DNA of 30,099 nt from Gemmatimonadota bacterium (GTDB lineage Bacteria; Gemmatimonadota; Gemmatimonadetes; Gemmatimonadales; Gemmatimonadaceae): assembly GCA_031372565.1 (NCBI GenBank), contig JANMLN010000162.1, positions 1 through 30,099 of the forward strand, read 5' to 3'. Each line of letters starts with the position of its first letter. The stretch's first letter is position 1. This document shows positions 1-28,213 of this stretch, piece by piece. Below the pieces are notes generated by a model that was given only the letters and a program-made list of their open reading frames with translations, was not told where the DNA came from and made no database searches. The position numbers were made by a program, and so were the translations under genes.

Positions 1-141
1 TCGAGTTCATTGATCGCTGGTACAATCTGGAGCGGCTGCATTCGTCGCTGGGCTATCGCTCCCCGATGCAGTACGAACGGTTCCTGCACGATCAGGCCGC
101 TGCGGCCTGAGTCACGTGTCCACTAAACCGGGGTAAGTCCA
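1..141 (+). mobile_element. Right end of an IS3-family insertion sequence (transposase C-terminus plus right inverted repeat); truncated by the window edge
   Basis: Frame from 3 reads EFIDRWYNLERLHSSLGYRSPMQYE...AAAA* (TGA 108-110), the typical YNxxRxHSSLGYxSPxxYE end of IS3 integrase-core transposases; 117-141 TGTCCACTAAACCGGGGTAAGTCCA ends in CA like an IS3 IRR. Confidence 0.9.
3..110 (+). CDS. IS3-family transposase, C-terminal fragment (5' part outside the window)
   Basis: Manual translation; RLHSSLGYRSP motif. Not in the ORF track. Confidence 0.9.
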   Translation, partial: EFIDRWYNLERLHSSLGYRSPMQYERFLHDQAAAA

Positions 142-11629: not shown

Positions 11630-13177
11630 TTACAACCCGTCGAGCAGGGCGTCGTTGGTCGTCGTGTTCGCGATCCGCTTGATCAGCCACTCCATCGCGG
11701 CCTGCGGCGGCATCTGGCCAAGCCCGCGCCGGAGCATGTGCACGTGCTCGAGCTGATCTGGTCGGAACAGCTTGTCCTCGCGGCGCGTCCCGCTGGTCGC
11801 GATATCGACGGCAGGGAAGATGCGCTTCTCCGCCATCGAGCGATCCAGCTTGATCTCGCAGTTGCCGGTGCCCTTGAACTCCTCGAAGATCACGTCGTCC
11901 ATGCGCGAACCCGTCTCGACGAGCGCGGTGGCGATGATCGTGAGCGAACCGCCCCCGTTGGCCTCCGAGACGGCGCGTGCGGACCCGAAGAAGGCCTTGG
12001 GCTTGGCCATCGCGGTGGCATCGAGACCGCCGGACATCGTGCGCCCGGTACCGCGCTCGGCCGTGTTGTGCGCCCGTGCCATGCGCGTGAGCGAGTCGAG
12101 CACGATGATCACGTCACGCCCCAACTCGACGAGTCGGCGCGCGCGCTCCAGCACCATCTCGGTCACTTCGACGTGCCGCTTGGCCGGTTGGTCGAAGCTC
12201 GAGGCGATCACCTCGCCGACCCCCCACGAGATGGCTTCGCTCACTTCTTCCGGCCGCTCGTCCACGAGCAGAATGAGCAGCACGGCCGCGGGGTGATTCA
12301 TGGCGATCCCCTCGGTGACGGCATGCATGAGCATGGTCTTGCCGGCACGGGCTGGCGCGACGATCAGCGCACGCTGACCGTAGCCGATCGGTGCCACCAG
12401 GTCGATCGCTCGACGTGTCAGCTCGGGGCCGCCCTTGGCCGGACGTCCGGTTTCGAGAATCAGCTTCCGGTCGGGGTAGCTGGCCACCAGTGACTGGAAG
12501 TCGGGCCGCTTGAGGCTGCTCGCCGGCTCCGCGTCGTTGATCTGCTGCACCTCGACGACCACGGTCCGGCCGCGGAAGTCGCGTCCGGTCGTCGCGGTGA
12601 GCTTGTCGCTCTTGCGAAGGCCGAGCTGCCGCACCTGCCATGGCGCCATGAACGGATCGGTCGGATCGGCCAGATAGCTCGCCCCCGGGCGGCGCACGAA
12701 TCCACCGTCGCGCGAGGGATCGAACCAGCCCGTCACCTCACCATCAGCCACCACGGCCTGCTGCGGAGGCTGCTGCCCGGAGTTGCCCTGTTGGGCGCCA
12801 GCAGCCGGGGCATCACCGCCGTTCCCGGGTCGATCACGGAACCGACCGCGACGACCGCGGCGCCCGTTGCGTCGCCCCGCGCCGCCCCCCTGCTGCGATC
12901 CGGCACCGCCCGCGCCATGCTGGTACGGCGACTCGGGACGCGAAGGCGCACCCTCACCACCGTTGCCTCCAACGTCGCGCGGAGCTCCGTTGCCGTCCGG
13001 CGCGTGCGTTTCCTGACTTCCCCCGCTCTGCGCAGGGGGCGGCGCGTCCGGCGCGTCGGCGGCGCCGTCGCTGGAGGGCGCGTCGGCATCCCGGTATGGG
13101 TTGTCCTGGGAGGCGTCACCTTCTGGGCGCTTGCCCGTGGTGCGCCGGCGACGATACGGACGTCGACGTTCGGTCAT
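11630..13177 (-). CDS. rho: Transcription termination factor Rho, divergent, with long low-complexity N-terminus
   Basis: 515 aa; APIGYGQR, Walker A APARAGKT, DERPEEV, LDSLTRMARA, ETGSRMDDVIFEEFKGTGN, SGTRREDKL. Confidence 0.95.
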   Translation of the reverse strand: MTERRRPYRRRRTTGKRPEGDASQDNPYRDADAPSSDGAADAPDAPPPAQSGGSQETHAPDGNGAPRDVGGNGGEGAPSRPESPYQHGAGGAGSQQGGGAGRRNGRRGRRGRFRDRPGNGGDAPAAGAQQGNSGQQPPQQAVVADGEVTGWFDPSRDGGFVRRPGASYLADPTDPFMAPWQVRQLGLRKSDKLTATTGRDFRGRTVVVEVQQINDAEPASSLKRPDFQSLVASYPDRKLILETGRPAKGGPELTRRAIDLVAPIGYGQRALIVAPARAGKTMLMHAVTEGIAMNHPAAVLLILLVDERPEEVSEAISWGVGEVIASSFDQPAKRHVEVTEMVLERARRLVELGRDVIIVLDSLTRMARAHNTAERGTGRTMSGGLDATAMAKPKAFFGSARAVSEANGGGSLTIIATALVETGSRMDDVIFEEFKGTGNCEIKLDRSMAEKRIFPAVDIATSGTRREDKLFRPDQLEHVHMLRRGLGQMPPQAAMEWLIKRIANTTTNDALLDGL

Positions 13178-13611
13178 GTCGGGATATGGCGGGTCAGGCG
13201 CGCCCCGGTCGGCCGGTCGGCCCCGGCGGGCGCAGTGAAACGAATGGTGTCAGTCCCGGTCTCCACACAGGGCGTCTCTCGTGCCTGGAGCGCCCGATCG
13301 ATCGGGCGGCACGAAGTCGCTGTTGGGCCGGGGGCCTTGGCACGCGTCAACAATGACGCGCCTCGAAACGGCAGTCGCACGTGGGATACACACCATGGCG
13401 ACCGACTCACTCGTGAAGTACGCCGCCGGCCAATCGCGACCGTTGCGCTGCGCACCGAACCGTCGGTGAGTCCTGCGTCCTGCATCAACAAGCGAGCAGC
13501 ACCCGCTTGTACGCGCGTAATGTGAGTGCCGTGGAGACGGCGCGCAACCCACCAATGCCGCTAGCTTATCGCCCCACCCCCGTTCCATCACTTCCGACTT
13601 CACGCCGTCCC

Positions 13612-14199
13612 ATGCGTCACGAAGACCTGTCCCGTCGACTGGCCTCCGCCGTCGAGCACTTTCGCGCCGACGGTGATATGGGTGCCTTGCAGGAGACGCT
13701 GGCGCAGCTGGTGCGCGAGTCCCCCGCGTCCGAGCTGGCCGCCGCCGCCGAGCCGTATCGGACCATGCCCGAGGTGGCCGGCCCGATCTTCGAGAAGGTT
13801 GTCGAGGCGGACCCCGACAATGCCAAGGCGCTGGTGGCCCTCGCCAACGCCTACTGGCTGGCCGGGCGTGGCCCAGAGAAGGTAGGCGAACTGGCGAGCC
13901 GGGCCATCGCGGCGGACCCGGCCAACAGGGCCGGCTGGCATCTGTGGTGCCTCTCCGAGAGTGACCCCCGTGAGCGCACGATTCGCTGGCGACAGGTCGT
14001 GGCGCGCTTTCACGACGATGACCTGGCGCGGGCGACGCTGGCCGACAGTGCGGCATCCCTGGCTGGTGCCGAGCGCGACCCGGAGGCGCTCGCCCTCGCG
14101 ATCAGCGAGTACGAGATTTTGCTGGCGCGCGCGACGCGACCCGAGCAGCGCGAGGCGCTCGACAAGGCGCTCCTGACGCTCCGGGCATGGACAATTTGA
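13612..14199 (+). CDS. TPR-like helical-repeat protein, ~195 aa
   Basis: FEKVVEADPDNAKALVALANAYW, RAIAADPAN, AISEYEILL are TPR-type patterns; start ATG 13612 (13555 possible). Confidence 0.75.
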   Translation: MRHEDLSRRLASAVEHFRADGDMGALQETLAQLVRESPASELAAAAEPYRTMPEVAGPIFEKVVEADPDNAKALVALANAYWLAGRGPEKVGELASRAIAADPANRAGWHLWCLSESDPRERTIRWRQVVARFHDDDLARATLADSAASLAGAERDPEALALAISEYEILLARATRPEQREALDKALLTLRAWTI

Positions 14200-14212
14200 C
14201 CTAGTGGGCAAA

Positions 14213-14290
14213 GGCAAAATGTCCGATTCCGGCCGGCAAGAGTCGCAGAAAGGGCAGTAATGTCGCAAAGCCACACCAAAATGTCGCGAA
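14213..14290 (+). promoter_or_regulatory. Four phased direct repeats, putative AraC-family binding array
   Basis: AAAATGTCCGA, AAGAGTCGCAG, TAATGTCGCAA, AAAATGTCGCG with GTC cores at 14221, 14242, 14262, 14283 (21/20/21-bp spacing). Confidence 0.7.
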
Positions 14291-14398
14291 TTCGCCCGAC
14301 GGGAGGTGCCGCACTCGCCGAGACTAAGGGGTAGTGGGCGGTCTGACCCGGGCGCCGCCAGCTGAGAACATCCTGCCCGGACCGATCGATGGGCGAGC

Positions 14399-15625
14399 AT
14401 GAGACAAGCTGAGCTTCTCCGGCACCAGGCTTTCTTCGACCGACTGGCCATGCTGCAGGAGTCCGATCCTGCCTGGAGGACGTTCACCGCAGGGCTCCTC
14501 GTGTTGCGTCAGCTGGACGACCGATTCCGGGAGGGGTACGCCCCCGATGCGCGGTCCACGGCCGCCACGATGGAAGCCGTTCAGTCGGTCCCGACGACCG
14601 ACTCGACGCGCCGACTCTTGATCGGGCTCGCCGATCTCGCGGTGTCTGCTGCCCCCCCGCTGCACGCCCTCGGCGTGCAGCTGTTCGCCTGGGCACGCGC
14701 GTTGGAGAACGATGCGGCGTGGGCGGTCGCGCAGGACGTGTATCGGATGGTGACCGAGTGCATGCCGGTCGACGACGACCTGGAGATCGTGACCGACGCC
14801 TGGATGCGACGCGCCTACGTCGCCCGGATGATGGGTGCGTACGCGGACGCGGAGTTCGCGATTCAGCGCGGGCGCGAGTTTGCGGCGCGCCTGGGGGATG
14901 CCTCGCGGTTGCTGCGGCTGCGCATGGCGAGCGCGAACGTGGCGATCGATCGGGACCAGCCCGAGCTCGCCGAATCGATCATCGCCGAGACCGTGGCGCT
15001 GGCCGCGCCGCTGGGCGGACCGGTGTACAGCGAAGCGCTGCACGGGCGCGGTGAGGTGGCGCGGCTGCGGGGCGACTTGGTGGGTGCCCTGCAGTACTAC
15101 CACCGGGCGCTCGAGGGCGCGCCATCCGACATCGGGCGCGAGCGGCTCCTGCTCACGATCTCGGCGGTCAGCGTCGATGTGGGCGCACGCGGCATGGCAC
15201 GCGATGCGTTGCTCGTGCTCGCGGTCACGGCGCAGACGCGCAACACGCGCTGGCTCGCGGTGGTCAACCTGCTCGAGATCGCCGTGCTCGACCGGAACGA
15301 GATCAGCTTCGAGTCGTATCGTCGCGAACTGGCGCTCGAGCCACTCAGCCCGATCGCGGCGGGCTACTTCGCGCTGTACGAAGGCCACGGCCACCGGGCA
15401 TTCGGCCGACCGGATCTGGCCGCAGCCTCCTATCGGCGGGCGCTGGAAAACGCGCACGCCCACCAACTCGGGAAGCTGGCTGGCGAAGCGGAGGCTGCGA
15501 TGCTGCGACTGCGAGAGACCGCGGACTGGAGTGGCGCGGACGACGAGTCAGCACTTCCGCGCGCGCTCGAACCCCTGGCGCGGCGCATGCGCGAGATGCG
15601 CGAGAGTCTCCCCGGTGGGCGGTGA
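14399..15625 (+). CDS. Cytoplasmic TPR-like all-helical protein, 408 aa
   Basis: Repeats such as AWMRRAYVARMMGAYADAEFA, ALHGRGEVARLRGDLVGALQYYHRAL, EGHGHRAFGRPDLAAASYRRAL; no signal peptide, HTH or NTPase motif seen. Confidence 0.8.
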   Translation: MRQAELLRHQAFFDRLAMLQESDPAWRTFTAGLLVLRQLDDRFREGYAPDARSTAATMEAVQSVPTTDSTRRLLIGLADLAVSAAPPLHALGVQLFAWARALENDAAWAVAQDVYRMVTECMPVDDDLEIVTDAWMRRAYVARMMGAYADAEFAIQRGREFAARLGDASRLLRLRMASANVAIDRDQPELAESIIAETVALAAPLGGPVYSEALHGRGEVARLRGDLVGALQYYHRALEGAPSDIGRERLLLTISAVSVDVGARGMARDALLVLAVTAQTRNTRWLAVVNLLEIAVLDRNEISFESYRRELALEPLSPIAAGYFALYEGHGHRAFGRPDLAAASYRRALENAHAHQLGKLAGEAEAAMLRLRETADWSGADDESALPRALEPLARRMREMRESLPGGR

Positions 15626-15655
15626 CGCTCGCGGCGCTCGCCGCGCCGCTACGAC

Positions 15656-15766
15656 TCAGTTGCCGTTGCTCTCGGTGACGCCATTGCGGGTCGGCGCGGT
15701 CGGCGACGTGCAGGCAGCCATCGAGATGGTCGCGAGGGCGATCAGGGCAAGGGCGATGCGGCGCAT
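15656..15766 (-). CDS. 36-aa exported peptide / lipopeptide precursor
   Basis: GAGG SD 6 nt before ATG 15766; MRRIALALIALATISMAA-CTSPTAPTRNGVTESNGN*: basic n-region, hydrophobic h-region, lipobox-like MAAC. Confidence 0.75.
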   Translation of the reverse strand: MRRIALALIALATISMAACTSPTAPTRNGVTESNGN

Positions 15767-15805
15767 GGAAGCCTCAAGAGTGGTTGGTGGATTTGACTCG
15801 CCACG

Positions 15806-15875
15806 GAATGTCGGGACACGACCCCCTGTCGCAAATGCGCCAAATGCGACAGAATGGTGCAGATTTCTGACATTA
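15806..15875. promoter_or_regulatory. Divergent promoter region with four TGTC(G/A)-type motifs including an 8-bp inverted repeat
   Basis: GAATGTCGGGA (core 15810), CTGTCGCA (15826-15833) / TGCGACAG (15845-15852), and minus-strand TAATGTCAGAAAT (core 15869-15871, 21 bp from the core at 15848-15850). Confidence 0.7.
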
Positions 15876-15888
15876 CCATCCCAAACGC

Positions 15889-16707
15889 TTGCACGTACTG
15901 GCCGTTCTGCCCGCTCCACAGCTCACTCATCTGCGATCGGTGATCGAACCGGCGCATCGGGTGACAGCTATCGCGTCGTCGGTCGAAATGACCGAGGCCG
16001 GGCGCAAGCGCGCCTTCGACCTTGTCCTGATCGATCCGTCGATGAGTGCCGTGATCTCGATCGGCGAGATCATCGGGTTCCGTCGGGCATTCCCCTCGAT
16101 TCCGGTCATTCCCTACACCTCGATGTCGGCGTCGGCGATGCGCGCCATTGCCGAACTCGCGCCGCACGGGATCTCGCGCGTCATCCTGCATCGTGTCGAC
16201 GACTCGCCGCAGCGACTGCTCGACATGCTGCACGCGCGGCCGACCGATGCACTCACGCCACGGGTGCTGGAGATGCTCGACCCCGAGCTCTCCCGCCTCA
16301 CGCAGCGGGTGCGTGCGGGGGTCCACCGGCTCTTCGACGAGCCGCAGGCGTTCTACGGCGTGAGCGACCTGGCACAGGCGGCGGGCGTCAACCCCCGCAC
16401 GCTCTATCGACAGTTCGACACGGCCGGACTCGCACCGGCCCGCGCCATGGTCCTGGGCGCGCGGCTCCTCCGAGCGTACGTCTGGCTGCGCGATCCGGCC
16501 AACTCGGCACAGGACGTCGTTCGCAAGCTCGGTTTCTCGTCCCGACAACAGTTCGGCCGTCAACTCACCCGTGTGACCGGTGCGAGCGCGCGCGTCGTGC
16601 GCAGCTTGTCGTCGGACGACCTGATCGTCGAGCGCCTCGTGGCGCTCATTCGCGCTGCACCGCCGGGCGCGCCCTCTGATGCGATCGACGACCTCCGCGA
16701 GACCTGA
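15889..16707 (+). CDS. AraC-family transcriptional regulator with N-terminal receiver-like domain
   Basis: 272 aa, TTG start; DLVLIDP...IPVIPYT receiver-like core; two HTHs: VSDLAQAAGVNPRTLYRQF and AQDVVRKLGFSSRQQFGRQL. Confidence 0.88.
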   Translation: MHVLAVLPAPQLTHLRSVIEPAHRVTAIASSVEMTEAGRKRAFDLVLIDPSMSAVISIGEIIGFRRAFPSIPVIPYTSMSASAMRAIAELAPHGISRVILHRVDDSPQRLLDMLHARPTDALTPRVLEMLDPELSRLTQRVRAGVHRLFDEPQAFYGVSDLAQAAGVNPRTLYRQFDTAGLAPARAMVLGARLLRAYVWLRDPANSAQDVVRKLGFSSRQQFGRQLTRVTGASARVVRSLSSDDLIVERLVALIRAAPPGAPSDAIDDLRET

Positions 16708-16710
16708 CCC

Positions 16711-17133
16711 ATGCGCCGCATCCTTCCGCCCGTGCCATCGCCGCTGATGCCGCGCTGCCTCATCGTCGACGATGAGCCGGCCATCGGCCGCGCCCTCTCC
16801 CTCGCGCTCGCGCGCGATGGATGGAGCTGCGTGCACGCCTCGTCTGCCGAACAGGCGCAGGCCTGCCTGCGCGACCAGACGTTCGATGCGATGATCGTGG
16901 ACCTGCGACTGAACGACATGCGCGGCGACGTCTTCTTGCACGTCGCGTGCGCCGTGCAACCCGCGCTCGCCACCACGACGCTGTTCATGACCGGCGACAT
17001 CAGCCCCAAGGCCGACGCGTTGCTCGCCGCGACGCGGTGCCCGGCCGTGCACAAGTCGTTCGATCTGTTCGAGGTCACGGCGCAGATGCGTCGCTTCGTG
17101 CCACGGCGCGACTCAGGCTCGGCGCTCGGCTGA
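16711..17133 (+). CDS. Single-domain response regulator (CheY-like)
   Basis: LIVDDE, FDAMIVDLRLNDMRG (phospho-acceptor D), FMTG, HKSF; alternative start ATG 16747. Confidence 0.9.
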   Translation: MRRILPPVPSPLMPRCLIVDDEPAIGRALSLALARDGWSCVHASSAEQAQACLRDQTFDAMIVDLRLNDMRGDVFLHVACAVQPALATTTLFMTGDISPKADALLAATRCPAVHKSFDLFEVTAQMRRFVPRRDSGSALG

Positions 17134-17146
17134 GCGCGGCCCGCCG

Positions 17147-18130
17147 CTACTTCGCGGGGCCGACGACGAGACGCGTCGACTCGTTGCGGTCGAGGATCCC
17201 GACGAGCGCGTTGCCGAGCACCTGCTGTCGGTTCAGCGAGTGCTTGGTGAATCCTGCGCTGTAGGGCCCGCGCGACGGCGTGCCGCTCACTTGGAGCACG
17301 GCATCGAAGCGGTACCTCACCGTGCGCTTCGACTTGGGGTCGGTCCACTGTCCGGCCACCGCGAGCGCACGATTCCGCGGCCACAGGCCAAGCGGCAGCG
17401 CAAAGGTGCGCACGCGGTACCCGGCCACCGCGCTGTCGATCGCCATCACGCCGCGTGCGATCTGCTCCTGTACCATGCGATCGTCGTACTTGTTCAGCTG
17501 CGCATGCCACAGGGTGTGGTCGCACAGCTCGAACCCGGACTCGACCAGGAACTTCAGCTTGCGAAAGCGCCACGCTGTTTGTTGCCCCTCGATCCCCTTG
17601 TCGCCAAAGAACGCGTGGCCGGCGGTCGCGGCAGGCAGCAGGCAAAAGGTCGCCTTGTTGCGCCAATCCGGATGCGCCTTCGAGAACGCGAGCCAGATGC
17701 CCACGGCGCTCTCGGGGTCGATGACGAGTTGACCGTTGCGCTCGAGGTAGCGGAACTGACCGGGCGATGCATCGTCGAAGGTAAACACCACCGGAGACGT
17801 GCCCGCCGGAATGTCGAGCACGCCGTCGACGAGCTCACTCACCGTGACGGGTCGGTACCCACGCGCGTACAGCAGATCGAGGTCGCGGCGAAAGCTCGCC
17901 GTGGAGCGCGTCCAGCGGGCGTCGTCGCCACCGATCTTGTGATACTCGAGGATGGGCACCGTGCCGTCACGGCGCGGAGGACGCGCCGTTTGGGCCACGA
18001 GCGCGGTGGAGAGCGCGAGATGCGCGGCCACGCATGCGGTCGCGAGGAGACGCGAGGGGGTGACGCAGACGCGCGCCGCGGCAAGCAGGTCGCCACGGCG
18101 CGCGTGCGATGACAGGCACGTGCGAATCAT
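17147..18130 (-). CDS. Exported polysaccharide deacetylase (CE4/NodB-like)
   Basis: VPILEYHKIG, VVFTFDDA, DHTLWH, TFALPLG; N-terminal signal-like segment; start uncertain. Confidence 0.88.
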   Translation of the reverse strand: MIRTCLSSHARRGDLLAAARVCVTPSRLLATACVAAHLALSTALVAQTARPPRRDGTVPILEYHKIGGDDARWTRSTASFRRDLDLLYARGYRPVTVSELVDGVLDIPAGTSPVVFTFDDASPGQFRYLERNGQLVIDPESAVGIWLAFSKAHPDWRNKATFCLLPAATAGHAFFGDKGIEGQQTAWRFRKLKFLVESGFELCDHTLWHAQLNKYDDRMVQEQIARGVMAIDSAVAGYRVRTFALPLGLWPRNRALAVAGQWTDPKSKRTVRYRFDAVLQVSGTPSRGPYSAGFTKHSLNRQQVLGNALVGILDRNESTRLVVGPAK

Positions 18131-18159
18131 GCCCGCAAGTTATCGACCTGCACGTCGCG

Positions 18160-19425
18160 CTACGCGATGCCGAGCCACCCCGCAGGCGATACGTCGAACC
18201 CCGGAAAGACGGCGTCGAGCGACGTGGCACCCAGCCGACGCGCTGCCACTTCGGCGAACACCGCGCGAAAGTCGGTCGTGAGCGCGAGGTCGCGCCCTTC
18301 GTACAGCTGCTCGCGTGCGAGCCCGGGCCAGCGGCCGTGCACCTTGCCGCCCTTGAGACCATCGCCAATCACGAACATGGTCGTCGCGTGGCCGTGATCG
18401 GTGCCGCCGTTGCCGTTCTGCCGCACCGTGCGACCAAACTCGGACATGGTCAGCACGGTGACATCGGCCATCGCGTCGCCCAGGTCCTGCACGAAGGCTG
18501 CGATCGCGCGCGCAAACTCGTCGAGCCGATTGGCGAGCTGCCCGGTGGCGCCGCCCTGGTTCACGTGGGTGTCCCACCCGCCCACATCGGCGAACGCCAG
18601 CTCGAGGCCGACGTTGGCGCGAATCAACTGCGCGATCTGGCGCAGCTTCTGCGCAAACGGCGTGGCCGGATACTGCGCGCCGTTGCGCGGCGCGTACTGC
18701 TGCGGATTGGCCGAGCGCAGCAACTTCATGGCCTCGAACATCTCGCTGCCGCTGGCGTGGACCACATCGGCCTGGCCCGTGCGGTACAGCGCCTCGATGC
18801 GCGCCGCAGCGTCGACGTTGGTGGCGCGCAAGGCGAACGCATCGAGGCCGTCCATGGCCACGGTGGCCGATGGTCCCTCGAGGATGCGCGGCGTCTGTGC
18901 GGTGAGCGCGACCGCGCGAAAGGGCGACGGCGCGCCATTCACGAGGCAGGCCTCACACGTGCCCTTGGCGGCCAGATACCGGTTGAGCCAGCCGCTGGCC
19001 GTCCCCTTCACGTCGGGAGTGGCCGTCTCCATGTAGTCCTGCGCATCGAAGTGCGAGCGCGTGCTGCTGGGACTGCCGACTGCCGCGATCGGCGCCATCA
19101 GTCCCCGCTGGTACAGCGGCAGAAGCGGCGCCATGGCCGGGTGGAGCCCGAAGAAGCCATCGAGGTCGAGCGCCCGATTGGGCGCCCCGGCGCTGGGCGC
19201 TGGCACGGCGATCCCCGGTCGTGCCTCGTAGTAGGCGCGCTCGCCGAAGGGGACCAGCACGTTCAGCGCATCGGCGGCGCCGCGCTGGAAGAGGCAGACG
19301 AGGACGCGGCCCTTGCCCCCCGCGCCGTGCGACATGGCATACGCGCCGCGCCGCAGGAAGCTCGGGCTCAGTCCCAGCGTCACGAGGCTCAGGGCCCCGG
19401 CCTTCATGAAGACGCGACGGCGCAT
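18160..19425 (-). CDS. DUF1501 domain protein with Tat signal
   Basis: MRRRVFMK twin-arginine; FQRGAADALN, RSHFDAQD, GGWDTH, SEFGRT, GTDHG, TTDFR. Confidence 0.9.
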   Translation of the reverse strand: MRRRVFMKAGALSLVTLGLSPSFLRRGAYAMSHGAGGKGRVLVCLFQRGAADALNVLVPFGERAYYEARPGIAVPAPSAGAPNRALDLDGFFGLHPAMAPLLPLYQRGLMAPIAAVGSPSSTRSHFDAQDYMETATPDVKGTASGWLNRYLAAKGTCEACLVNGAPSPFRAVALTAQTPRILEGPSATVAMDGLDAFALRATNVDAAARIEALYRTGQADVVHASGSEMFEAMKLLRSANPQQYAPRNGAQYPATPFAQKLRQIAQLIRANVGLELAFADVGGWDTHVNQGGATGQLANRLDEFARAIAAFVQDLGDAMADVTVLTMSEFGRTVRQNGNGGTDHGHATTMFVIGDGLKGGKVHGRWPGLAREQLYEGRDLALTTDFRAVFAEVAARRLGATSLDAVFPGFDVSPAGWLGIA

Positions 19426-19438
19426 CGTGTGATCGCTC

Positions 19439-21331
19439 CTATCGACGCTGAAACTCAGGCGATCCGATCGCCAACGCGACGACCTGCGGCAGTCCGGTCA
19501 GCGCCGGCAGTTGACGAAAGAGCAATGCGCCGGCGCGCGCCATGGCCCCGGCCCCTGCGCCGACACCGGCACCCGGTGCGGGTCGCGTCGCGGCCAGTGG
19601 CATCCGGTCCGCCATCATCGCGTTTGGCGGAGTCGCCGCACCCGTCATGCTGCCATCGTCGGCGGGCGCGGGGGCCGCAGCCGACCGTGCCGCGGCATCG
19701 CCCAGCGGGTGCGACCCCGACGTCAGGATCGCGCGCGTGTCCGGCGACACGTCGCCGCCCAGCAGCTCCTGCACCACATGGTCGACCTGCGTCGCCCGCG
19801 GCGCGCGCGCGAGGTCGCGACCGGCGTTCCACGTCCCCGGGTTGGCCCCAGGCAGCCGGTTGGCACCGACGGCGAAGCCGAAGTTGATGCGATTGAGGAT
19901 CGCACCCGTGTTCATCCACTCGCGCCCCTGATCGGGCCAGCCGTTCGGCGCCTGGTGGCCCCACAGCGGCTGGCCGAGCTGCGCGATGGCCACGGCCGTG
20001 CGTGGCGTCGAGTCGGCCCGCGCGCCCAACGCACGCGAGGCGCTCACCACCACCTCGAACGGCGACTTGACCTTGGCTCGCCATGCCGCACGCGCAAAGA
20101 ACTCCGGCGACTTCACGATCGTGCGCACGACCTCGCGCATGTCACCACGCGTGCGCTGCCAAGTGCGCACGGCGCGCTCGACGAGCGCGTCGTCCGGTTG
20201 GTCGCTCACGAGCCGGATCACGAGTTTGCGCACGATGAAGCGCGCGGTCGCCGGATGCGCGGCGACCAGGTCGAGCACGTCCTCACCGTCTTCGATGCCG
20301 CGCCCGCCGGGCAACCGCTGCCCGAGCAGCTCCTTGGGGTCCGCGTCATGCATGCCCGGTCGGAAAACGAAAGGCCCACCGCGCGCCGGCTGGTCGACGG
20401 TCCAACCCGTGAAGGCGCGCGCGACGCTGATGACGTCCTGCTGCGTGTAGCCGCCGTCGACACCCAGCGTGTGCAACTCGAGCAGTTCGCGCCCGTAGTT
20501 CTCGTTCAGGCCGCCCCGACGGCGCACCATCATCCGACCACCCCCCGCGGGCCGCGCCCGCAGCTCCAGCAACGTCGGGTGCGTGCTGTCGGCCATGCTC
20601 TGCGCATTGTCGAGATACAGCAGCATGGCGGGGCTGTGCGCCACGGCGCCGAGCAGGTCGCGAAAGCGGCCGAGTGCCCGCGGCCGGATCACGTCGCGCT
20701 CGTACTGCGGCAGGTAGTGCCGCATCGTCGGGCCCTTGGCCACGAACACGTTGAAGTGGTTGAGCCAGAATTCGGTCAACACCGCTTCGAGCTGCCGCTC
20801 GGTGCCCACGGCCCGCGCCACGCGCGATGCCTGCAGCTGCGCCACCATCTGTCCCTGCGCGCGCTGCATCTCGCGATAGCGCACGGAATCATCGGCGCTT
20901 GGCACGTCGCCGTCGCGCTGCATTTGCCGCCTGACGAACGCCGGCGGCGGTGAGCGATCCATCAGGTCGGCGGGCGAACCGGCGAGCAGGGCAAAGCGGT
21001 CGCTCACGGCATCGAGCGCCGTGTCGCCTATCGTGGTGGGCTGCAGCTGACGGTCGATCCACGCGTCCACTCCCATGGCGCGCACGGCCGCGACGTCGCC
21101 CGGTCGCGGTCCGAACGCCAGACGATTCAGCACGTGGAGCGCTTGCTGGTCCTCGGTGAGTTCGCGCGGGAGCGCCGACACCGCCTCCAGCTCCGGGCTC
21201 GGCGCGAGCGTCGGCACGCCCGCCCCGCCGCCGCCCGCGCATGCGGCCAGCGACGCGAGCAGCGCCGCGGCCAGCGCGCGGTGGGCGCCGACGTGCATGT
21301 GGGAGCGAAGGCGACTCGATCGTGACGTCAT
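19439..21331 (-). CDS. DUF1800 domain lipoprotein
   Basis: LAAC lipobox; HVLNRLAFGP, FWLNHFNV, MLLYLDN, NENYGRELLELHTLG, SPEFQRR. Confidence 0.92.
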   Translation of the reverse strand: MTSRSSRLRSHMHVGAHRALAAALLASLAACAGGGGAGVPTLAPSPELEAVSALPRELTEDQQALHVLNRLAFGPRPGDVAAVRAMGVDAWIDRQLQPTTIGDTALDAVSDRFALLAGSPADLMDRSPPPAFVRRQMQRDGDVPSADDSVRYREMQRAQGQMVAQLQASRVARAVGTERQLEAVLTEFWLNHFNVFVAKGPTMRHYLPQYERDVIRPRALGRFRDLLGAVAHSPAMLLYLDNAQSMADSTHPTLLELRARPAGGGRMMVRRRGGLNENYGRELLELHTLGVDGGYTQQDVISVARAFTGWTVDQPARGGPFVFRPGMHDADPKELLGQRLPGGRGIEDGEDVLDLVAAHPATARFIVRKLVIRLVSDQPDDALVERAVRTWQRTRGDMREVVRTIVKSPEFFARAAWRAKVKSPFEVVVSASRALGARADSTPRTAVAIAQLGQPLWGHQAPNGWPDQGREWMNTGAILNRINFGFAVGANRLPGANPGTWNAGRDLARAPRATQVDHVVQELLGGDVSPDTRAILTSGSHPLGDAAARSAAAPAPADDGSMTGAATPPNAMMADRMPLAATRPAPGAGVGAGAGAMARAGALLFRQLPALTGLPQVVALAIGSPEFQRR

Positions 21332-21973: not shown

Positions 21974-22240
21974 ATGCCAAGGCCCAGTGTCGTGCAACCG
22001 AAGCTCCGCCCATCGCAGGGCGATCGCGTCATCTCCGATGACGACGGCCTCTTGTGGAGCGCCACCTTGGTCGAGGACCAGGGCGATGTGCTGGTGATCT
22101 TCCACTGCATCACCGATGCGCGACGCTCCGGCCGCATCTCGTGCCTCGCCGTCGACCTCGGCATGCCGTTTGCCGACCTCCCCGACGAGACCGTGCGCGA
22201 CTGGCTCCGACACGCGCCGCCGATCGGGCGGCTCTACTGA
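21974..22240 (+). CDS. Small hypothetical protein, 88 aa
   Basis: AAGGAG SD before ATG 21974; ordinary globular composition (RVISDDDGLLWSAT...DLPDETVRDWLRHA). Confidence 0.75.
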   Translation: MPRPSVVQPKLRPSQGDRVISDDDGLLWSATLVEDQGDVLVIFHCITDARRSGRISCLAVDLGMPFADLPDETVRDWLRHAPPIGRLY

Positions 22241-22265
22241 CCCGCCTGCGGCGGGAGGAGGGGGT

Positions 22266-24371
22266 ATGCGCGAGTATGGCTCGAAGGAGATCCGCAACGT
22301 GGCTGTAGTGGGACACGGCGCGAGCGGCAAGACGACCTTGGTCGATGCCCTCGCGTTCGTGTCCGGATCCAGCAAGCGGCATGGCCGCGTGAAAGACGGG
22401 ACAGCGCTCACCGACTACGCACCCGAAGAGGTTGAACATCGATACTCCATCAATCTTGGGCTTGCACACGCCGAGTGGATGGACAGCAAGATCAACCTGC
22501 TCGACACGCCGGGCTTTCTCGATTTCGAGGGCGACACCACAGCGGGACTGACCGCCGCGGATGGCGCCCTCCTGTGCATCAGTGCCACTGCGGGCGTTGA
22601 GGTCGGCGCCGAGCGGATGTTCCGCGCGGCTGTGGCGCGCCGCGACCCCGTGCTCTTCGTGGTCACGATGCTCGACAAGGAGCACGCCAGCTTCGCGCGG
22701 ACCTTCGAGCAGATCAAGGAGCGGCTCACGGCGCGCGTCATTCCCGTCGAGATCCCCCTCGGCGAAGGGCCCGGGTTTCACGGCCTGCTCAATCTCTTCG
22801 AGAAGACGGCGCGCACCTTCGTGAAGGGCACGAAGAGCGGTGAGTACATCGAGGGCGACGTGCCGGCCGAGGCGCGCGCGACCTTCGATCAGTACTACAA
22901 CGAGCTGATCGAGACGATCGCGGCCGGCGACGACTCGTTGCTCGAGCGCTATCTCGAGGGTGCGGAGATCTCGCGCGAGGACGCGATGGCCGCGATGAAG
23001 GAGGAAATGAAGCGCGGGGAGGTGTATCCGCTCTTCTGCTGTGCCGCCGAACTCACCTACGGCACGCGCGAACTCCTCACCAAGATCGTCGAACTGATGC
23101 CGACCGCGTACGAGATGGAGGAGCTGCACGCCTTCACCGGCGCCGAGGGCCATCGCACGGTCGAGATCCATGCCGAGCCCGAGGCACCGTTCTCGGCGCT
23201 CGTGTTCAAGACGGTGGCCGAACCACACGTCGGGGATGTGTCGTACTTCCGCGTCTTCTCGGGCACGGTACGCAGTGGCGCCGAGGTGTACAACGCGACG
23301 CGCGATCACGCCGAGAAGATGGGCCATCTGGCCGTCCCGCAAGGGCGCGAGCGGATCGAGGTCTCGCGGTTGCTGCCGGGCGACATCGGCTGCGTGGCCA
23401 AGCTCCGCAACACGCACACCAACGACACGCTCTCGACCCGCGAACATCCGGTGCGACTGCCGGGCATCGCCTTTCCCGAGCCATTGGTGCATTTCGCGGT
23501 CCATGCGGCCACGCGCGCCGACGAGGACAAGCTGCAAGCCGGGCTGCATCGGCTGCACGACGAAGATCCGACCTTCGAGCTCCACTACGACGGCGAAACG
23601 CATGAAACGATCGTCGCGGGCATGGGGGAGCGGCACCTCGAGATCGCGATGAGTCGGCTCACGCGGAAGTTCGGCGTGCTCGCCGAACTCACGCCGCCGC
23701 GCATTGCCTATCGCGAGACGCTGACCGCCTCGGCGCAGGGCCAGGGGCGCCACCGGAAGCAGAGCGGCGGACGCGGGCAGTTCGGCGACTGCTGGGTCCG
23801 CCTGTCGCCGCGTTCCCGCGGAGCGGGCTACCAGTTCACGAACGAGGTCGTGGGCGGCGCCATCCCCGGCAAGTTCATTCCGGCGGTGGACCGGGGGGTG
23901 CAGGAGGCGTCGGTGCGTGGCGTCCTCGCCGGCTATCCGATGGTCGACTTCGCCTGTGCCTGCTTCGACGGCAGCGCGCACTCGGTGGACTCGAACGAAA
24001 TGTCGTTCAAGATGGCCGGCATTGCGGCCTTCAAGCAGGTGGCTACCCAGGCACGACCCGTGCTGCTCGAACCGGTGGATCAGGTCGAGGTCACCACGCC
24101 TGAACAGTATCTGGGGGATGTGCTGGGCGACCTCTCTGCTCGTCGCGGGAGCATCGTGGGCACGGAACTCGCGCTGGATGGCCTCGGCACGCGCGTGCGC
24201 GCGATCGTGCCGCGGGCCGAGTTGCATCTGTATGCCACCCATCTCTCGTCGATCACGCACGGCCGCGGCTTGCTCGCGCGGCGCGTCGAGGGCTACGAGC
24301 TGATGCCCACCGAGGCGGCGCAGCGGCTCATCGCGAGCAGTCGCCAGGTGGAGGAGCCGCTCGAGGCGTGA
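22266..24371 (+). CDS. fusA2: Elongation factor G paralogue (EF-G2 / EF-G II), 701 aa
   Basis: GGAGG SD; GHGASGKTT, DTPG, GMGERHL, KQSGGRGQFG, HSVDSNEMSF, LLEP; RYSI replaces RGITI; not in an str operon. Confidence 0.92.
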   Translation: MREYGSKEIRNVAVVGHGASGKTTLVDALAFVSGSSKRHGRVKDGTALTDYAPEEVEHRYSINLGLAHAEWMDSKINLLDTPGFLDFEGDTTAGLTAADGALLCISATAGVEVGAERMFRAAVARRDPVLFVVTMLDKEHASFARTFEQIKERLTARVIPVEIPLGEGPGFHGLLNLFEKTARTFVKGTKSGEYIEGDVPAEARATFDQYYNELIETIAAGDDSLLERYLEGAEISREDAMAAMKEEMKRGEVYPLFCCAAELTYGTRELLTKIVELMPTAYEMEELHAFTGAEGHRTVEIHAEPEAPFSALVFKTVAEPHVGDVSYFRVFSGTVRSGAEVYNATRDHAEKMGHLAVPQGRERIEVSRLLPGDIGCVAKLRNTHTNDTLSTREHPVRLPGIAFPEPLVHFAVHAATRADEDKLQAGLHRLHDEDPTFELHYDGETHETIVAGMGERHLEIAMSRLTRKFGVLAELTPPRIAYRETLTASAQGQGRHRKQSGGRGQFGDCWVRLSPRSRGAGYQFTNEVVGGAIPGKFIPAVDRGVQEASVRGVLAGYPMVDFACACFDGSAHSVDSNEMSFKMAGIAAFKQVATQARPVLLEPVDQVEVTTPEQYLGDVLGDLSARRGSIVGTELALDGLGTRVRAIVPRAELHLYATHLSSITHGRGLLARRVEGYELMPTEAAQRLIASSRQVEEPLEA

Positions 24372-26839
24372 CGACGGACGCCTCCGCTCGGGACGCAGGC
24401 GCGCCGCCGGTGACCGTCAAGGTTCCGGCGGCGTTTGCTCCCGCATTTCAGGCGGCGGAAGCGTTCGTCCGGCGCTACTTCGCCGATCGGGTGGACGACC
24501 CGGAGCACGGATCGATCACGATCTCGGGCGAGCGCTACATCCTGGTGCGGGCGGCGTCGATGTCGGTCGAGTTCTTCGACCTCGTGCGGTCGCTCTACGC
24601 CGATCGGGGATTGTCCGAGGCGACCGGGGTGGCCGCGAACCTGTTGTACGACGTCGCCCATGCGATCGGCAAGGCGGACGCGCGGGCCTTCAACGTGCGA
24701 ACCGGCGGTCACGAGCCGATTGCCCGGCTGTCGGCGGGGCCCGTGCACTTCTCGCACGCCGGCTGGGCCTTCGTGGACATCGATGCGCAATCGTCGCCCA
24801 GCCCGGATGACGCGTACCTGCTGGTGTATGACCACCCCTACTCGTTCGAGTCGGACGCGTGGCTTCGGCAGGAACGCACGTCCGACTTTCCGGTGTGCGT
24901 GATGAATGCGGGTTACTCGTCGGGCTGGTGCTCGGAGAGTTTCGGGCTGGAGCTGGTGGCGGCGGAGATCACCTGTCGCGCGCGCGGCGACGACCGATGC
25001 CGGTTCGTGATGGCCCCGACGACGCGCATCGAGGCCCGTGTCGCGGAAGTCCTGGCGCACACCCCCGACGCGATGGCGCCCGTGTCGATTCCGGCCTTCT
25101 TCCGCCGCAATCACACCGAAGAGGAGCTGCGGCGCACCAACGAGCTGCTCGAAGCCCGCGTGCGCGAACGCACCCAGGCGTTGCAGCGTGCGAACGCGGA
25201 GCTGGCGGCGCAGGTCGAGGCGCGCACCCGATCGGAAGCGGCGTTGGCCGAGCGCGAGCGGCGCATGGAGCAGGCGCTGCAATCGGTGAAGGCCGGCGCG
25301 TGGCATTGGGATCTCGAGCGCGATGAAGTGGACTTCAGTGCGTCATTCGCGCCGCTGCTCGCGCAGCCGTCACCCGCGTCGGGTGCCGCCGTGCGTGCGG
25401 CGGTCTTCAACCGGTTGCATCCCGACGATCTGCGGCAGCTCCTGCGCGAGGTCCCCCGATTGGCGGCACGCGTCGGCGAGGTCGAGCGCGAGGTGCGCGT
25501 GCGCTGGCATGGCGGCGACGATGCGTGGCGCTGGATCTCGGTGCAGGCCCACTTCGAACCGGGACCCGACGGGCGTGTGGTGCGGGCCTTGGGCGTCGTG
25601 GTGGACATCACGGACCGCAAGGCGGCGGCCGAGGAGCGCGTCACGCTCGAGCGCAGCATGGCGCAGGCACAGAAGCTCGAGTCATTGGGCGTGCTCGCCG
25701 GCGGTATTGCCCACGACTTCAACAACCTGCTCGTGGGCATGCTGGGCAACGCGGAGTTGGCGCAGGCGGAGCTCGCGCATCTGGAGGGGGGCGACGCGAG
25801 CGAAGCGGTGGAACTGGTGCACCAGATCGAGCGCTCCGCGTCGCGGGCCGCGGGCCTCACCCGGCAGATGCTGGCGTACGCCGGGCGCGCGCGGTTCGTG
25901 CTTGAACCGATCGATGCGAACCGCACGATTGTCGACGTGATCGACCTCGTGACGGCGGCCATCTCGAAGCAAGCGACGCTCCAGTTCGACTTCGCCGACG
26001 GGCTGCCACTGATCGAGGCGGACGGCACGCAGCTGCGTCAGGTCCTGATGAACCTGATCGTGAATGCCAGCGATGCGCTGCTCGATCGGCCGGGCACGAT
26101 CACGGTCGCCACCCGGCCCGTCGAGGCGGATCGCGCGCTCCTGCGGACGCTGGTGCTGGGGGACGAGCTGCCGGAAGGACTCTACGTGCGCTTCGTCGTG
26201 CGTGATACGGGGGTCGGCATGACGCCCGACACCATGGCGCGGGTCTTCGAGCCGTTCTTCTCGACCAAGTTTGCGGGGCGCGGACTGGGGCTGGCGGCGG
26301 TGCTGGGCATCGTGCGGGCGCACAAGGGCGCGATCGGGCTGGAAAGCGAGCCAGGCGCGGGCACGGCGTTCACCCTGTTGCTGCCGGCATCGCTGCGACC
26401 GCGGACGGAGGCCGTCGTGACGCCGATGGGCGGAACGTCCGTGGCGGTGGCCCCCGAGGGGGGGACGGTGCTCGTGGTGGATGACGACGAGACGGTGCGT
26501 GAAGTCGCGCACCAGATCCTCAAGCGGGCGGGCTTCCGCGTGCTGCGCGCGGTCGACGGTTTGGCTGCGCTGCAGATCGTGCGGACCGAGCCGCGCATCG
26601 ACCTCGTGCTGCTCGACGCCTCGATGCCCGTGATGAGCGGTCCCGAAACGATCGAGGCGTTGCGCGCGTCGGCATGGCACGGACCGATCGTCGTGATGAG
26701 CGGACATGCCATGGAAGACGCGACCGCGGCCTTCTCGGCGTGGGACGCGCAGGCGTTCGTGCGCAAACCGTTCCGCCGCGCGGAGCTCGTGAGCACCGTG
26801 TTGTCGCGGCTGAGTGGGGCGTCGCAACAGCGCCCGTAG
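24368..26839 (+). CDS. Hybrid sensor histidine kinase: XylR-N/V4R - coiled coil - PAS - HisKA - HATPase - REC
   Basis: 823 aa; PVC...EITCRARGDDRCRF (V4R), LHPDD...DITDRK (PAS), GIAHDFNNLL, DTGVGM, FFSTK..GRGLGL, LVVDDD...LLD...KPF; GTG overlaps the EF-G2 stop. Confidence 0.93.
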   Translation: MTTDASARDAGAPPVTVKVPAAFAPAFQAAEAFVRRYFADRVDDPEHGSITISGERYILVRAASMSVEFFDLVRSLYADRGLSEATGVAANLLYDVAHAIGKADARAFNVRTGGHEPIARLSAGPVHFSHAGWAFVDIDAQSSPSPDDAYLLVYDHPYSFESDAWLRQERTSDFPVCVMNAGYSSGWCSESFGLELVAAEITCRARGDDRCRFVMAPTTRIEARVAEVLAHTPDAMAPVSIPAFFRRNHTEEELRRTNELLEARVRERTQALQRANAELAAQVEARTRSEAALAERERRMEQALQSVKAGAWHWDLERDEVDFSASFAPLLAQPSPASGAAVRAAVFNRLHPDDLRQLLREVPRLAARVGEVEREVRVRWHGGDDAWRWISVQAHFEPGPDGRVVRALGVVVDITDRKAAAEERVTLERSMAQAQKLESLGVLAGGIAHDFNNLLVGMLGNAELAQAELAHLEGGDASEAVELVHQIERSASRAAGLTRQMLAYAGRARFVLEPIDANRTIVDVIDLVTAAISKQATLQFDFADGLPLIEADGTQLRQVLMNLIVNASDALLDRPGTITVATRPVEADRALLRTLVLGDELPEGLYVRFVVRDTGVGMTPDTMARVFEPFFSTKFAGRGLGLAAVLGIVRAHKGAIGLESEPGAGTAFTLLLPASLRPRTEAVVTPMGGTSVAVAPEGGTVLVVDDDETVREVAHQILKRAGFRVLRAVDGLAALQIVRTEPRIDLVLLDASMPVMSGPETIEALRASAWHGPIVVMSGHAMEDATAAFSAWDAQAFVRKPFRRAELVSTVLSRLSGASQQRP

Positions 26840-27108: not shown

Positions 27109-27208
27109 GACTAATTGTAAGTCTTTACTGTGTATGTGTTTATAAGGACGTACGAGGCGCACCAATCACTAATTGACAATATTATGGTCACTGACTATAA
27201 TTGAGTCA
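27109..27208. promoter_or_regulatory. Three GAC-N9-GTC palindromic operator-like sites
   Basis: GAC-TAATTGTAA-GTC (27109-27123), TGAC-AATATTATG-GTCA (27174-27190), TGAC-TATAATTGA-GTCA (27192-27208). Confidence 0.75.
27173..27201 (+). promoter_or_regulatory. Perfect-consensus sigma70 promoter
   Basis: TTGACA (27173-27178) - 17 bp - TATAAT (27196-27201) within an AT-rich patch. Confidence 0.9.
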
Positions 27209-27285
27209 ATAAAGGCACTCCCGCCGCGAGGCGGGGCCGCAAAGCCTGGAGTCTCACTTACGCTGAGATCGTCCGGTTACCCGCA
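27208..27285 (+). ncRNA. Cyclic di-GMP-I (GEMM-I) riboswitch aptamer
   Basis: GGCACT-CCCGCC-GCGA-GGCGGG-GCCGCAAAGCC...GTCTCA/TGAGAT...TCCGGTTACC: P2 with GNRA loop, GCAAAG junction, P3 and GTTACC end; ligand positions equivalent to Vc2 G20/A47/C92 are G27214/A27241/C27280. P1 is not evident. Confidence 0.82.
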
Positions 27286-27463: not shown

Positions 27464-28213
27464 TTACACCTTGTGGTAGCTGATGCGCGCCGCCTCGCGA
27501 CGGTCCGCGCCGGCGTAGATCTCGAAATCGGAGAAGAAGGCCGGCGCCTCCGCCTGCAGCGTGCGCAGCACCATCACCGCGCAGCGGCGGATCTCGAGCT
27601 CCGCCGCTTCACTCGAACGCAGCTCGAGCATCGTGCGCCAGGCCCGTGCGTTGCCCGTCACGACGATATTGGTCTCCGTCGAGTTCGGGAGCACGCCGCG
27701 CGCCGCTTCCCGCGCCATCTTGCGGCGATGCACCTTGTCGTCGACCCAGGCGTAGCGCGTCATGAGCTGGTCGACGAGCGCCACATACGACGTTTGTGCC
27801 GACGTGACCTGCGCCTTCCATGCCTCCTCGAGCGCGGCGTCGCCGATCATCGCCGGCGGCACCACGAACTCGGCCTTCGACTCGTCGACGTAGCGCTGTG
27901 ACAGCTGCGAGTAGGCGAAGCCGGCGCGGTGACGCACCAGTTCGTGCGTGAGCGAGCGGCTCACCCCTTCGAGCAGCAGGGAGTAGTTGGCGTGCTCGAG
28001 CACCGAGCCGTGCCCCTGCTTCTTGATGTTCTCGAGATACTCGCGCGTGGTGCGGCTCGCGGGATTCTTCTGGCTCATGTAGCAGAGCCGTCCGGCGAAC
28101 TCCGCCAGGCGTTCACCGTCCGTGCTCTCGCCGATCCACTGCACGGGCAGGTGCGCCGGCTCCGCGAACTGCGGGCGCGACAAAACGGTGATGCGGGGCT
28201 CGGTATGGAACAC
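27464..28213 (-). CDS. thyX: FAD-dependent thymidylate synthase ThyX, ~249 aa
   Basis: AGRLCY, GHGSVLEH, HELVRHRAGFAYSQLSQRYV (RHR-x8-S), AREAARGVLPN, AELEIR; GTG 28213 start is tentative. Confidence 0.95.
   Translation of the reverse strand: MFHTEPRITVLSRPQFAEPAHLPVQWIGESTDGERLAEFAGRLCYMSQKNPASRTTREYLENIKKQGHGSVLEHANYSLLLEGVSRSLTHELVRHRAGFAYSQLSQRYVDESKAEFVVPPAMIGDAALEEAWKAQVTSAQTSYVALVDQLMTRYAWVDDKVHRRKMAREAARGVLPNSTETNIVVTGNARAWRTMLELRSSEAAELEIRRCAVMVLRTLQAEAPAFFSDFEIYAGADRREAARISYHKV

Follow-up and report, generated by a model that had tools for sequence, protein, structure and literature searches.

The RRNPP systems (Rap/Rgg/NprR/PlcR/PrgX), in which tetratricopeptide repeat (TPR) proteins are paired with tiny exported peptides, are described for Firmicutes in the accessible parts of the literature. 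In the available sections of PMC10075063, the 'relaxed' signature of the program RRNPP_detector comprises a TPR protein of 250-500 aa and an adjacent open reading frame (ORF) of 10-100 aa at a distance of −60 to 400 bp, which is preceded by a Shine-Dalgarno (SD) sequence and encodes a LIPO-type signal. A second source of peptide ligands is known from enterococci, where the signal peptides of lipoproteins are cleaved to give pheromones (PMC4173765, accessible part). Here, we analyzed a stretch of 30,099 nucleotides from a Gemmatimonadota bacterium (contig JANMLN010000162.1; hereafter the window; G+C content 69%), for which a sequence-only reading had proposed an analogous communication circuit. 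The proposal concerned four genes, encoding a TPR protein of 408 aa (14399-15625, plus strand), a peptide of 36 aa (15656-15766, minus strand; MRRIALALIALATISMAACTSPTAPTRNGVTESNGN), an AraC-type regulator of 272 aa with a TTG start (15889-16707, plus strand), and a single-domain receiver of 140 aa (16711-17133, plus strand). For comparison, we used the window together with five related loci (L001-L005), which were obtained from one genome-context scan (81 pattern matches, five confirmed). The relatives of the window are metagenome-assembled Gemmatimonadota and are 52-82% identical. All four genes proved to be real, as had been claimed, and are conserved together (ORF list, Pfam, 5/5 loci).

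Our preferred interpretation, to which we assign a probability of roughly 45%, is a regulatory cassette specific to one lineage, a single clade of Gemmatimonadota, in which the AraC-type factor would control its own operon as well as the genes of a mini-lipoprotein, i.e., the 36-aa product, and of the TPR protein. The positive evidence is a DNA element shared by the two intergenic regions, which fits the view of a single regulatory unit made up of the AraC-type/receiver operon, the TPR gene, and the peptide gene. The sequence-only reading had already pointed to a TGTCGCA-like motif in both regions. A conserved, locus-specific cis element is indeed present there, but the short words do not carry it: counts of AATGTC, AATGTCG, and TGTCGCA across the whole window are not above chance (five of the eight AATGTC sites fall in the two intergenic regions), and the perfect inverted repeat TGTCGCA-N11-TGCGACA occurs in the window only, its left arm being degenerate in the other five loci. 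Based on an alignment of the intergenic regions from all six loci, the motif was recast as an element of about 30 bp with the structure TTGCGACA-N3-TGGTGCAGA-N5-GACATT. A search with the pattern GACA-N17-NACATT, which was defined after seeing the data, recovered 11 copies in 81,250 nt, compared to a mean of 0.09 in 300 shuffles. These comprise one plus-strand copy between the peptide gene and the AraC-type gene in 6/6 loci and one minus-strand copy upstream of the TPR gene in each of the five loci that contain this region (intergenic region 1), and no copy was found outside the two intergenic regions in the 81,250 nt. A GGTG core is invariant in 11/11 copies, although the pattern had left it free, and a profile built from the 11 copies revealed no further one (next E-value 0.44).

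The plus-strand copy (15844..15874) ends 14 nt before the start codon of the AraC-type gene, a spacing that is constant in 6/6 loci while the bases in between differ. Because of this position, the copy would overlap the core promoter of the AraC-type operon. Intergenic region 1, inspected by sequence, by alignment of five loci, and by motif scans, contains four direct (A)ATGTCGC-like repeats (14218..14289), whose GTC triplets lie at 14221, 14242, 14262, and 14283 and are thus spaced by 21, 20, and 21 bp. A repeat spacing of 20-21 bp is the geometry typical of AraC/XylS-type binding arrays. The last two repeats constitute the minus-strand copy of the element (core 14259-14289). The element is oriented identically with respect to the peptide gene and the TPR gene, its distances from the respective start codons being 79 and 111 nt. 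Furthermore, a promoter-like pair faces the peptide gene on the minus strand (15807..15833), formed by GCGACA (15827-15832) and GACATT (15807-15812) with 14 nt between them, and may serve as its promoter. The AATGTC and CCCCCTGTC blocks of this pair are kept in five of the six loci, L005 carrying CATACT instead of GACATT. Within 13100-17300, neither canonical sigma-70 promoters nor intrinsic terminators were called. A perfect TTGACA-17-TATAAT promoter is present elsewhere in the window (27174-27202), so the housekeeping consensus of this genome appears conventional and GCGACA-17-GACATT within the element may consequently be seen as a weak, factor-dependent site. A sigma-54 reading of TGGTGCAGA-N5-GAC was ruled out, as no GC is found at −12.

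The candidate for the factor acting at these sites is the AraC-type protein, which contains an AraC-type helix-turn-helix (HTH) domain at residues 161-238 (Pfam HTH_18, 45.6 bits vs. a cut-off of 33.6, E 9e-12) and a sub-threshold Response_reg match at residues 16-101 (E 0.05). Residues 1-115 were modelled as a (beta-alpha)5 receiver fold with alternating strands and helices (pLDDT of the model 90.3). The best Foldseek matches of the model were the full-length response regulators FixJ, PorX, RcsB, and NarL as well as isolated receivers, of which 2qr3 aligned with a TMt of 0.73 and a root-mean-square deviation of 2.8. In an alignment of 19 AraC-type sequences, the acidic pair that follows strand 1 is replaced throughout, by Leu7 in 19/19 and Pro8 in 17/19 sequences (Ser or Thr in the others), while the phospho-acceptor aspartate position D49 is kept in 18/19. 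As the acidic pair is replaced in all 19 sequences, 'pseudo-receiver', the term chosen in the sequence-only reading, is a fair description of the modelled N-terminal domain, and the Leu-Pro replacement makes phosphorylation of the AraC-type protein doubtful. The group to which the protein belongs is small and was found only in Gemmatimonadota (word-based search, 25 clusters). Its start codon is TTG or GTG in 6/6 loci, and no SD sequence precedes the gene in any of the six. Together with the fixed distance of 14 nt from the GACATT of the element, these features suggest an mRNA with a very short leader or none.

The 140-aa protein encoded downstream is a canonical receiver (Response_reg, 39.3 bits vs. 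a cut-off of 30.2, E 8e-10; NCBIfam receiver models match as well). It carries the aspartate pair and the conserved Asp, Thr, and Lys residues, which are kept in the five aligned sequences within LIVDDEP, IVDLRL, FMTGD, and HKSF/HKPF. The receiver gene starts 3 nt past the stop codon of the AraC-type gene in the five loci evaluated, L005 having been left out. Since this 3-nt gap is kept, the two genes are predicted to form an operon, and the arrangement implies that translation of the receiver is coupled to that of the AraC-type gene.

The second putative target is the 36-aa ORF, which is a real and constrained gene. The peptide is encoded at the same place in 5/5 related loci with 71-89% identity, and codon differences summed over 15 pairs amount to 54/39/121 at positions 1/2/3. 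All indels are multiples of three (+3 nt in L004, +6 nt in L005), and the window copy shows an adjacent, compensating +1/−1 codon change that leaves the reading frame intact. The G+C content at third codon positions (GC3) is 0.89, compared to 0.80-0.89 in the neighbouring long genes and only 0.61 in an enclosing frame of 87 aa. Third-position bias, in-frame indels, GC3, and conservation hence place the gene under coding constraint. Its SD-like sequence, already recognized in the sequence-only reading, is a GAGG tetramer on the minus strand (15772-15775), 5 nt before the ATG, and GAGG is found 5-8 nt 5' of the ATG in 6/6 loci. Gene callers had predicted the same protein of 36-37 aa in five clusters of the protein collection, which was searched with the enclosing 87-aa ORF as query against shorter proteins.

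The precursor consists of the n-region MRR, a hydrophobic core of 12 residues, the cleavage-site region S-M-A-A-C (S-L-A-A-C in L005), and a hydrophilic, Pro/Thr/Ser-rich tail. Its maximum Kyte-Doolittle(15) value is 2.41. The tail comprises 18 aa in the window (18-20 across the loci) and terminates in a conserved octapeptide, GVTE(S/N)(N/T)G(H/N), the window copy ending in GVTESNGN. The cysteine at the lipobox-like site is invariant in 10/10 peptide sequences. Judged by the consensus [LVI][ASTVI][GAS]C, as given in the accessible part of PMC7296081, the L-A-A-C of L005 is canonical, and the M-A-A-C of the window deviates by its Met at −3. Owing to the lipobox-like site with its invariant cysteine, the 36-aa product is probably a membrane-anchored mini-lipoprotein. 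No Pfam family matched the peptide at E ≤ 0.1 and no NCBIfam membership was obtained; NCBIfam returned weak matches to lipoprotein signal regions only, all of them under the cut-off. A feature match in Atlas to a colicin lysis (Lysis_col) cluster reached a score of 0.83, which is under the lead threshold of 0.9.

The third putative target, the TPR gene, converges on the peptide gene, and the gap of 27-33 nt between the two stop codons (15626-15655 in the window) folds into a GC-rich hairpin in 6/6 loci, with energies from −10.6 to −27.3 kcal/mol (15631..15649 in the window). The sequence of the stem differs in each locus. The hairpin lacks a T-run and the terminator scan made no call; it is probably a bidirectional terminator. 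Since it lies between convergent genes, TPR and peptide genes are expected to form separate transcripts.

Regarding the TPR protein, Pfam identified TPR_1 (E 4e-9) and TPR_2 repeats, and no hydrophobic segment is present (maximum Kyte-Doolittle(15) 1.55), in line with the cytoplasmic character assumed earlier. An AlphaFold model based on an alignment of 106 sequences (pLDDT 95.2) shows a solenoid built from 20 helices, the N-terminal part of which is not of the TPR type, and no HTH domain was detected by Pfam. The protein is accordingly modelled as a cytoplasmic all-helical solenoid and represents one ortholog group in a large Gemmatimonadota family. A word-based search yielded 15 close relatives (53-82% identity), and an exhaustive search yielded 660 family representatives at E ≤ 1e-3, of which 377 remained at 1e-10 and 95 at 1e-30. 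Almost all of these proteins are about 400-430 aa in length and match end to end. In every one of the nearest Atlas clusters, Gemmatimonadota were the commonest phylum. A FastTree phylogeny of 118 members places the ortholog group of the window in a single clade (support 100, stem 0.9) amid many deep branches. Two kinds of extended family members were found. P0067 (644 aa), whose closest unfused relative in the tree is P0041, carries an extracytoplasmic function (ECF) sigma factor (Sigma70_r2 and r4_2) N-terminal to a complete TPR domain of about 400 aa; as a single case, this fusion could be a gene-calling artefact. Ten of 152 representatives (P0062, P0085, P0091, P0102, P0103, P0118, P0130, P0134, P0146, and P0156) contain a Cys/His-rich N-terminal extension of about 55 residues without a Pfam match, defined by the motif C-x-G-x3-H-x-W ... 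DAAKCCNG[YF] ... YYWRP, and these cluster on one side of a well-supported branch in the family tree.

In the regulatory cassette that we favour, the AraC-type factor would bind the GACA(TT) motifs of the elements, which are direct repeats spaced by 21 bp, the usual geometry for the AraC family. It would autoregulate its own operon and jointly control the genes of the mini-lipoprotein and the TPR protein. An unlinked kinase would phosphorylate the free receiver, which could in turn modulate the AraC-type factor, e.g., through a receiver-receiver contact. The 36-aa product would be exported, lipid-modified at Cys19, and retained in the envelope as an anchored lipopeptide of 18 residues, so that the mini-lipoprotein would be an output of the circuit and not a diffusible signal. 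The TPR solenoid, finally, would be subject to the same control and may act as an adaptor that binds proteins in the cytoplasm.

Several observations weigh against this cassette. That the AraC-type factor is the protein binding the element is something we infer. Upstream of the TPR gene, the element copy faces away from the gene itself and might just as well be the promoter of an antisense or short RNA. No histidine kinase adjoins the cassette, the nearest one being a hybrid kinase 7 kb away. The TPR family with its 660 representatives is far larger than the AraC-type group with its 25 clusters, the latter having been obtained with the less sensitive word-based search; on these numbers, the majority of TPR family members may work without an AraC-type partner. 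As to the mini-lipoprotein, the Met at −3 of the window site falls outside the lipobox consensus quoted in the accessible part of PMC7296081, and the S-M-A preceding A18 could serve signal peptidase I, so lipidation is not certain. Synteny does not help either: gene order is collinear from rho (or the small TPR gene upstream of the cassette) to DUF1800 in 5/5 loci as far as the contigs reach. As this whole neighbourhood is syntenic in close relatives, its conservation is uninformative on functional linkage, and co-occurrence of the four genes, checked among close relatives only, does not discriminate.

Since gene order says nothing specific, the genes could also be unrelated neighbours, comprising a self-contained AraC-type/receiver regulator, an independent envelope mini-lipoprotein, and an unrelated TPR scaffold, with the second element copy being an antisense or small-RNA promoter or a relic. 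We consider this unlikely, yet it is an explanation to be taken seriously. The element resembles a weak sigma-70 promoter (GCGACA-17-GACATT) and lies at promoter distance from the AraC-type start codon, the TPR and peptide transcripts are separate and convergent, and tiny envelope lipoproteins are known, e.g., the entericidin-family protein Atu8019 with a mature form of 32 aa (accessible part of PMC7296081); the weak Atlas lead to the colicin lysis protein cluster (0.83) fits in as well. What it leaves unaccounted for is that the element with its invariant GGTG is kept at both sites in 5/5 loci with region 1, down to 52% protein identity, and is missing from the remaining intergenic regions that were sampled. 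A relic, or a promoter that arose by chance, would not be preserved like this, and the alignment shows no conserved ORF or sequence downstream of the minus-strand copy. Alternatively, the TPR protein might act like Rap, or as an anti-activator, without a peptide ligand: it would bind the free receiver or the receiver-like domain of the AraC-type factor and tune phosphotransfer or DNA binding, the mini-lipoprotein being a regulated target only. The RapH-Spo0F structure (3q15) does align with the TPR model over 372 columns (TMq 0.47), the length of 408 aa, the all-helical fold, and the non-TPR N-terminal part resemble Rap, a free receiver is encoded 1.1 kb away, and TPR relatives are fused to signalling or transcription modules (the ECF sigma factor of P0067; the Cys/His-rich extension in 10/152). 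This structural similarity is generic, however, the single sigma fusion could be an artefact of gene calling, and the wide TPR family probably has many different partners. The contact between the TPR protein and the receiver or AraC-type protein is putative, and we consider such a mechanism quite improbable.

The circuit originally proposed is of the RRNPP type, in which a fragment of the exported and processed peptide re-enters the cytoplasm and binds the TPR groove, and the TPR protein acts on the receiver or the AraC-type factor. With 408 aa for the TPR protein and a GAGG-led 36-aa ORF 30 bp from its stop codon, the locus falls within the 'relaxed' signature of RRNPP_detector as stated in the accessible part of PMC10075063. 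The TPR protein is modelled as a long solenoid, a type that binds peptides in extended form; a conserved octapeptide closes the peptide tail; the S-M-A of the precursor is a possible signal peptidase I site; and the TPR family has many members and deep branches within a single phylum, as would be expected for an expanded receptor family. The resemblance to RRNPP receptors does not go beyond the generic TPR-solenoid type, as judged from the model and the family profile. In a Foldseek search against the PDB, TPR domains of LGN/Pins and designed consensus TPRs were on top (E about 3e-5, TMq 0.40-0.47), and Rap of phage phi3T, NprR, and RapH-Spo0F were listed at ranks 27, 38, and 46, under the designed TPRs, with TMq values of 0.43-0.48. 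When the family profile (106 sequences) was compared to PDB sequences, the best 60 matches included designed TPRs, LGN, OGT, and kinesin light chains (E 3e-14) and no RRNPP receptor. The claim of an RRNPP-like receptor is thus not borne out, and the lack of an HTH domain in the TPR protein adds to this. Neither is that of a diffusible signal, since the invariant cysteine (10/10) at the lipobox-like site, canonical in L005, favours anchoring in the membrane. Co-variation between tail and TPR protein, which the sequence-only reading had suggested as a check, was not seen either: the tail is nearly constant across the 10 peptide sequences, a small sample from one clade, while TPR identity drops to 52% across the loci. 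Moreover, the TPR and peptide genes converge on a terminator-like hairpin, the 30-kb window contains no oligopeptide permease, and a full-text literature search for RRNPP and Gemmatimonadetes found no paper. An RRNPP-like mechanism hence appears very unlikely to us. The same holds for a wider diderm peptide-sensing circuit, in which the 36-aa prolipoprotein would mainly supply a ligand to a TPR receptor, itself a member of the family expanded across Gemmatimonadota; the receptor would set the unphosphorylatable receiver-AraC factor and the free receiver, with feedback on both promoters via the 30-bp element. The ligand could be the released C-terminal octapeptide or, by analogy with the enterococcal pheromones, a fragment of the unusually conserved signal peptide, freed into the cytoplasm after cleavage by signal peptidase II.

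The surroundings of the cassette were inspected as well. On its 5' side, rho (11630-13177) is followed by a second, small TPR gene (13507..14199, plus strand), which encodes 230 aa from a TTG (alternative ATG at 13612) and has weak TPR_19/TPR_16 matches under the Pfam cut-offs. This gene is kept in four of the five related loci, the contig of L004 stopping before it, and we treat it as a context gene whose membership in the cassette is only putative. Rho itself possesses an Arg/Gly/Pro-rich N-terminal extension of about 140 residues ahead of its RNA-binding domain, which caused many spurious low-complexity tblastn matches across the loci. On the 3' side, the opposite strand encodes a polysaccharide deacetylase, a DUF1501 protein with a Tat-like MRRRVF start, and a DUF1800 protein (17147-21331; Pfam). 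These minus-strand genes make up a conserved block that converges with the receiver gene, and the 30-bp element is not present upstream of the three. Farther out, the window encodes a TonB-dependent receptor, peptidases, a paralog of elongation factor G (EF-G), and a hybrid histidine kinase. Within 22116-26839, the gene of the EF-G paralog (751 aa) overlaps the start of the hybrid kinase gene by 4 nt, which suggests translational coupling of an unusual pair; the kinase comprises V4R, PAS, HisKA, HATPase, and receiver domains. Directly behind the perfect sigma-70 promoter mentioned above (27174-27202) lies a c-di-GMP-I riboswitch (27204-27284, 51.4 bits), followed by an ORF of 35-37 aa with a hydrophobic C-terminus (27301/27307-27414), and a thyX-like gene on the opposite strand ends at 27464. 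Rfam families were not detected in or near the locus, PADLOC identified no defence families, and neither a processing protease nor an exporter was seen in the window.

To our knowledge, gene regulation is almost unknown in Gemmatimonadota, which are abundant in soils and waters. The locus offers a compact and testable set, including an atypical regulator, a free receiver, a TPR protein, and a sharply defined 30-bp element at exactly two places. It also adds a verified tiny gene of a kind often missed by gene callers, whose mature product of about 18 residues would rank among the shortest lipoproteins, and it provides an entry point to a phylum-wide family of TPR proteins of about 410 residues, which forms hundreds of clusters at 50% identity without an assigned function. 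Should the TPR protein sense the peptide, receptor-propeptide signalling would extend beyond Firmicutes; should it not, the locus would still be a clean model for the control of a degenerate receiver-AraC factor.

Compared to described systems, the parts of the cassette are of known kinds, and their combination, i.e., a degenerate receiver-AraC factor coupled to a free receiver, a private DNA element in two copies, a mini-lipoprotein, and a TPR member of a phylum-wide family, is undescribed within the literature searched; a full-text search for Gemmatimonadetes, AraC, and tetratricopeptide found no paper. With RRNPP systems, the locus shares a TPR protein of 250-500 aa beside an SD-led ORF of <100 aa with an export signal (criteria from the accessible part of PMC10075063). 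It differs from them by the lack of a specific sequence or fold relationship to the receptors compared (Rap, Rgg, NprR, PlcR, PrgX, and AimR) and of an HTH domain, and by a peptide with a lipobox-like site and an invariant cysteine, convergent genes, an undiversified tail, and a diderm host. With the enterococcal sex pheromones (cCF10 and cAD1; LspA, Eep, and PptAB), it has in common that a lipoprotein precursor could supply the ligand for a cytoplasmic TPR-type receptor (accessible part of PMC4173765), and the signal peptide is better conserved (4/19 variable columns) than the tail (8/19 plus two indel columns). However, whereas the whole precursor of this locus has 36 aa, the enterococcal pheromones derive from large lipoproteins of the ordinary kind, whose genes lie apart from that of the receptor. 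Entericidin A/B and the colicin lysis mini-lipoproteins are, like the peptide, made as very short precursors; theirs carry a lipobox and yield mature parts of some tens of residues, Atu8019 comprising 53 aa with a mature form of 32 aa (accessible part of PMC7296081). In contrast to these, the peptide lacks a family profile match, its mature part, with 18-20 aa, is shorter, rich in Pro, Thr, and Ser, and non-amphipathic, and it is linked to a regulator operon. Structurally and by sequence, the TPR protein is matched best by the TPR solenoids of LGN/Pins and kinesin light chain (Foldseek E 3e-5; profile E 3e-14). These solenoids hold extended partner peptides in their inner groove; they are eukaryotic and share no genomic context with the locus, so the likeness lies at the level of the repeat type. 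Finally, response regulators with an AraC output, an architecture (REC-HTH_AraC) found, e.g., in the YesN type, likewise combine a receiver fold with a subsequent AraC/XylS HTH domain, whereas the AraC-type protein described here carries Leu-Pro in place of the acidic pair and is predicted to be translationally coupled to a separate, canonical receiver.

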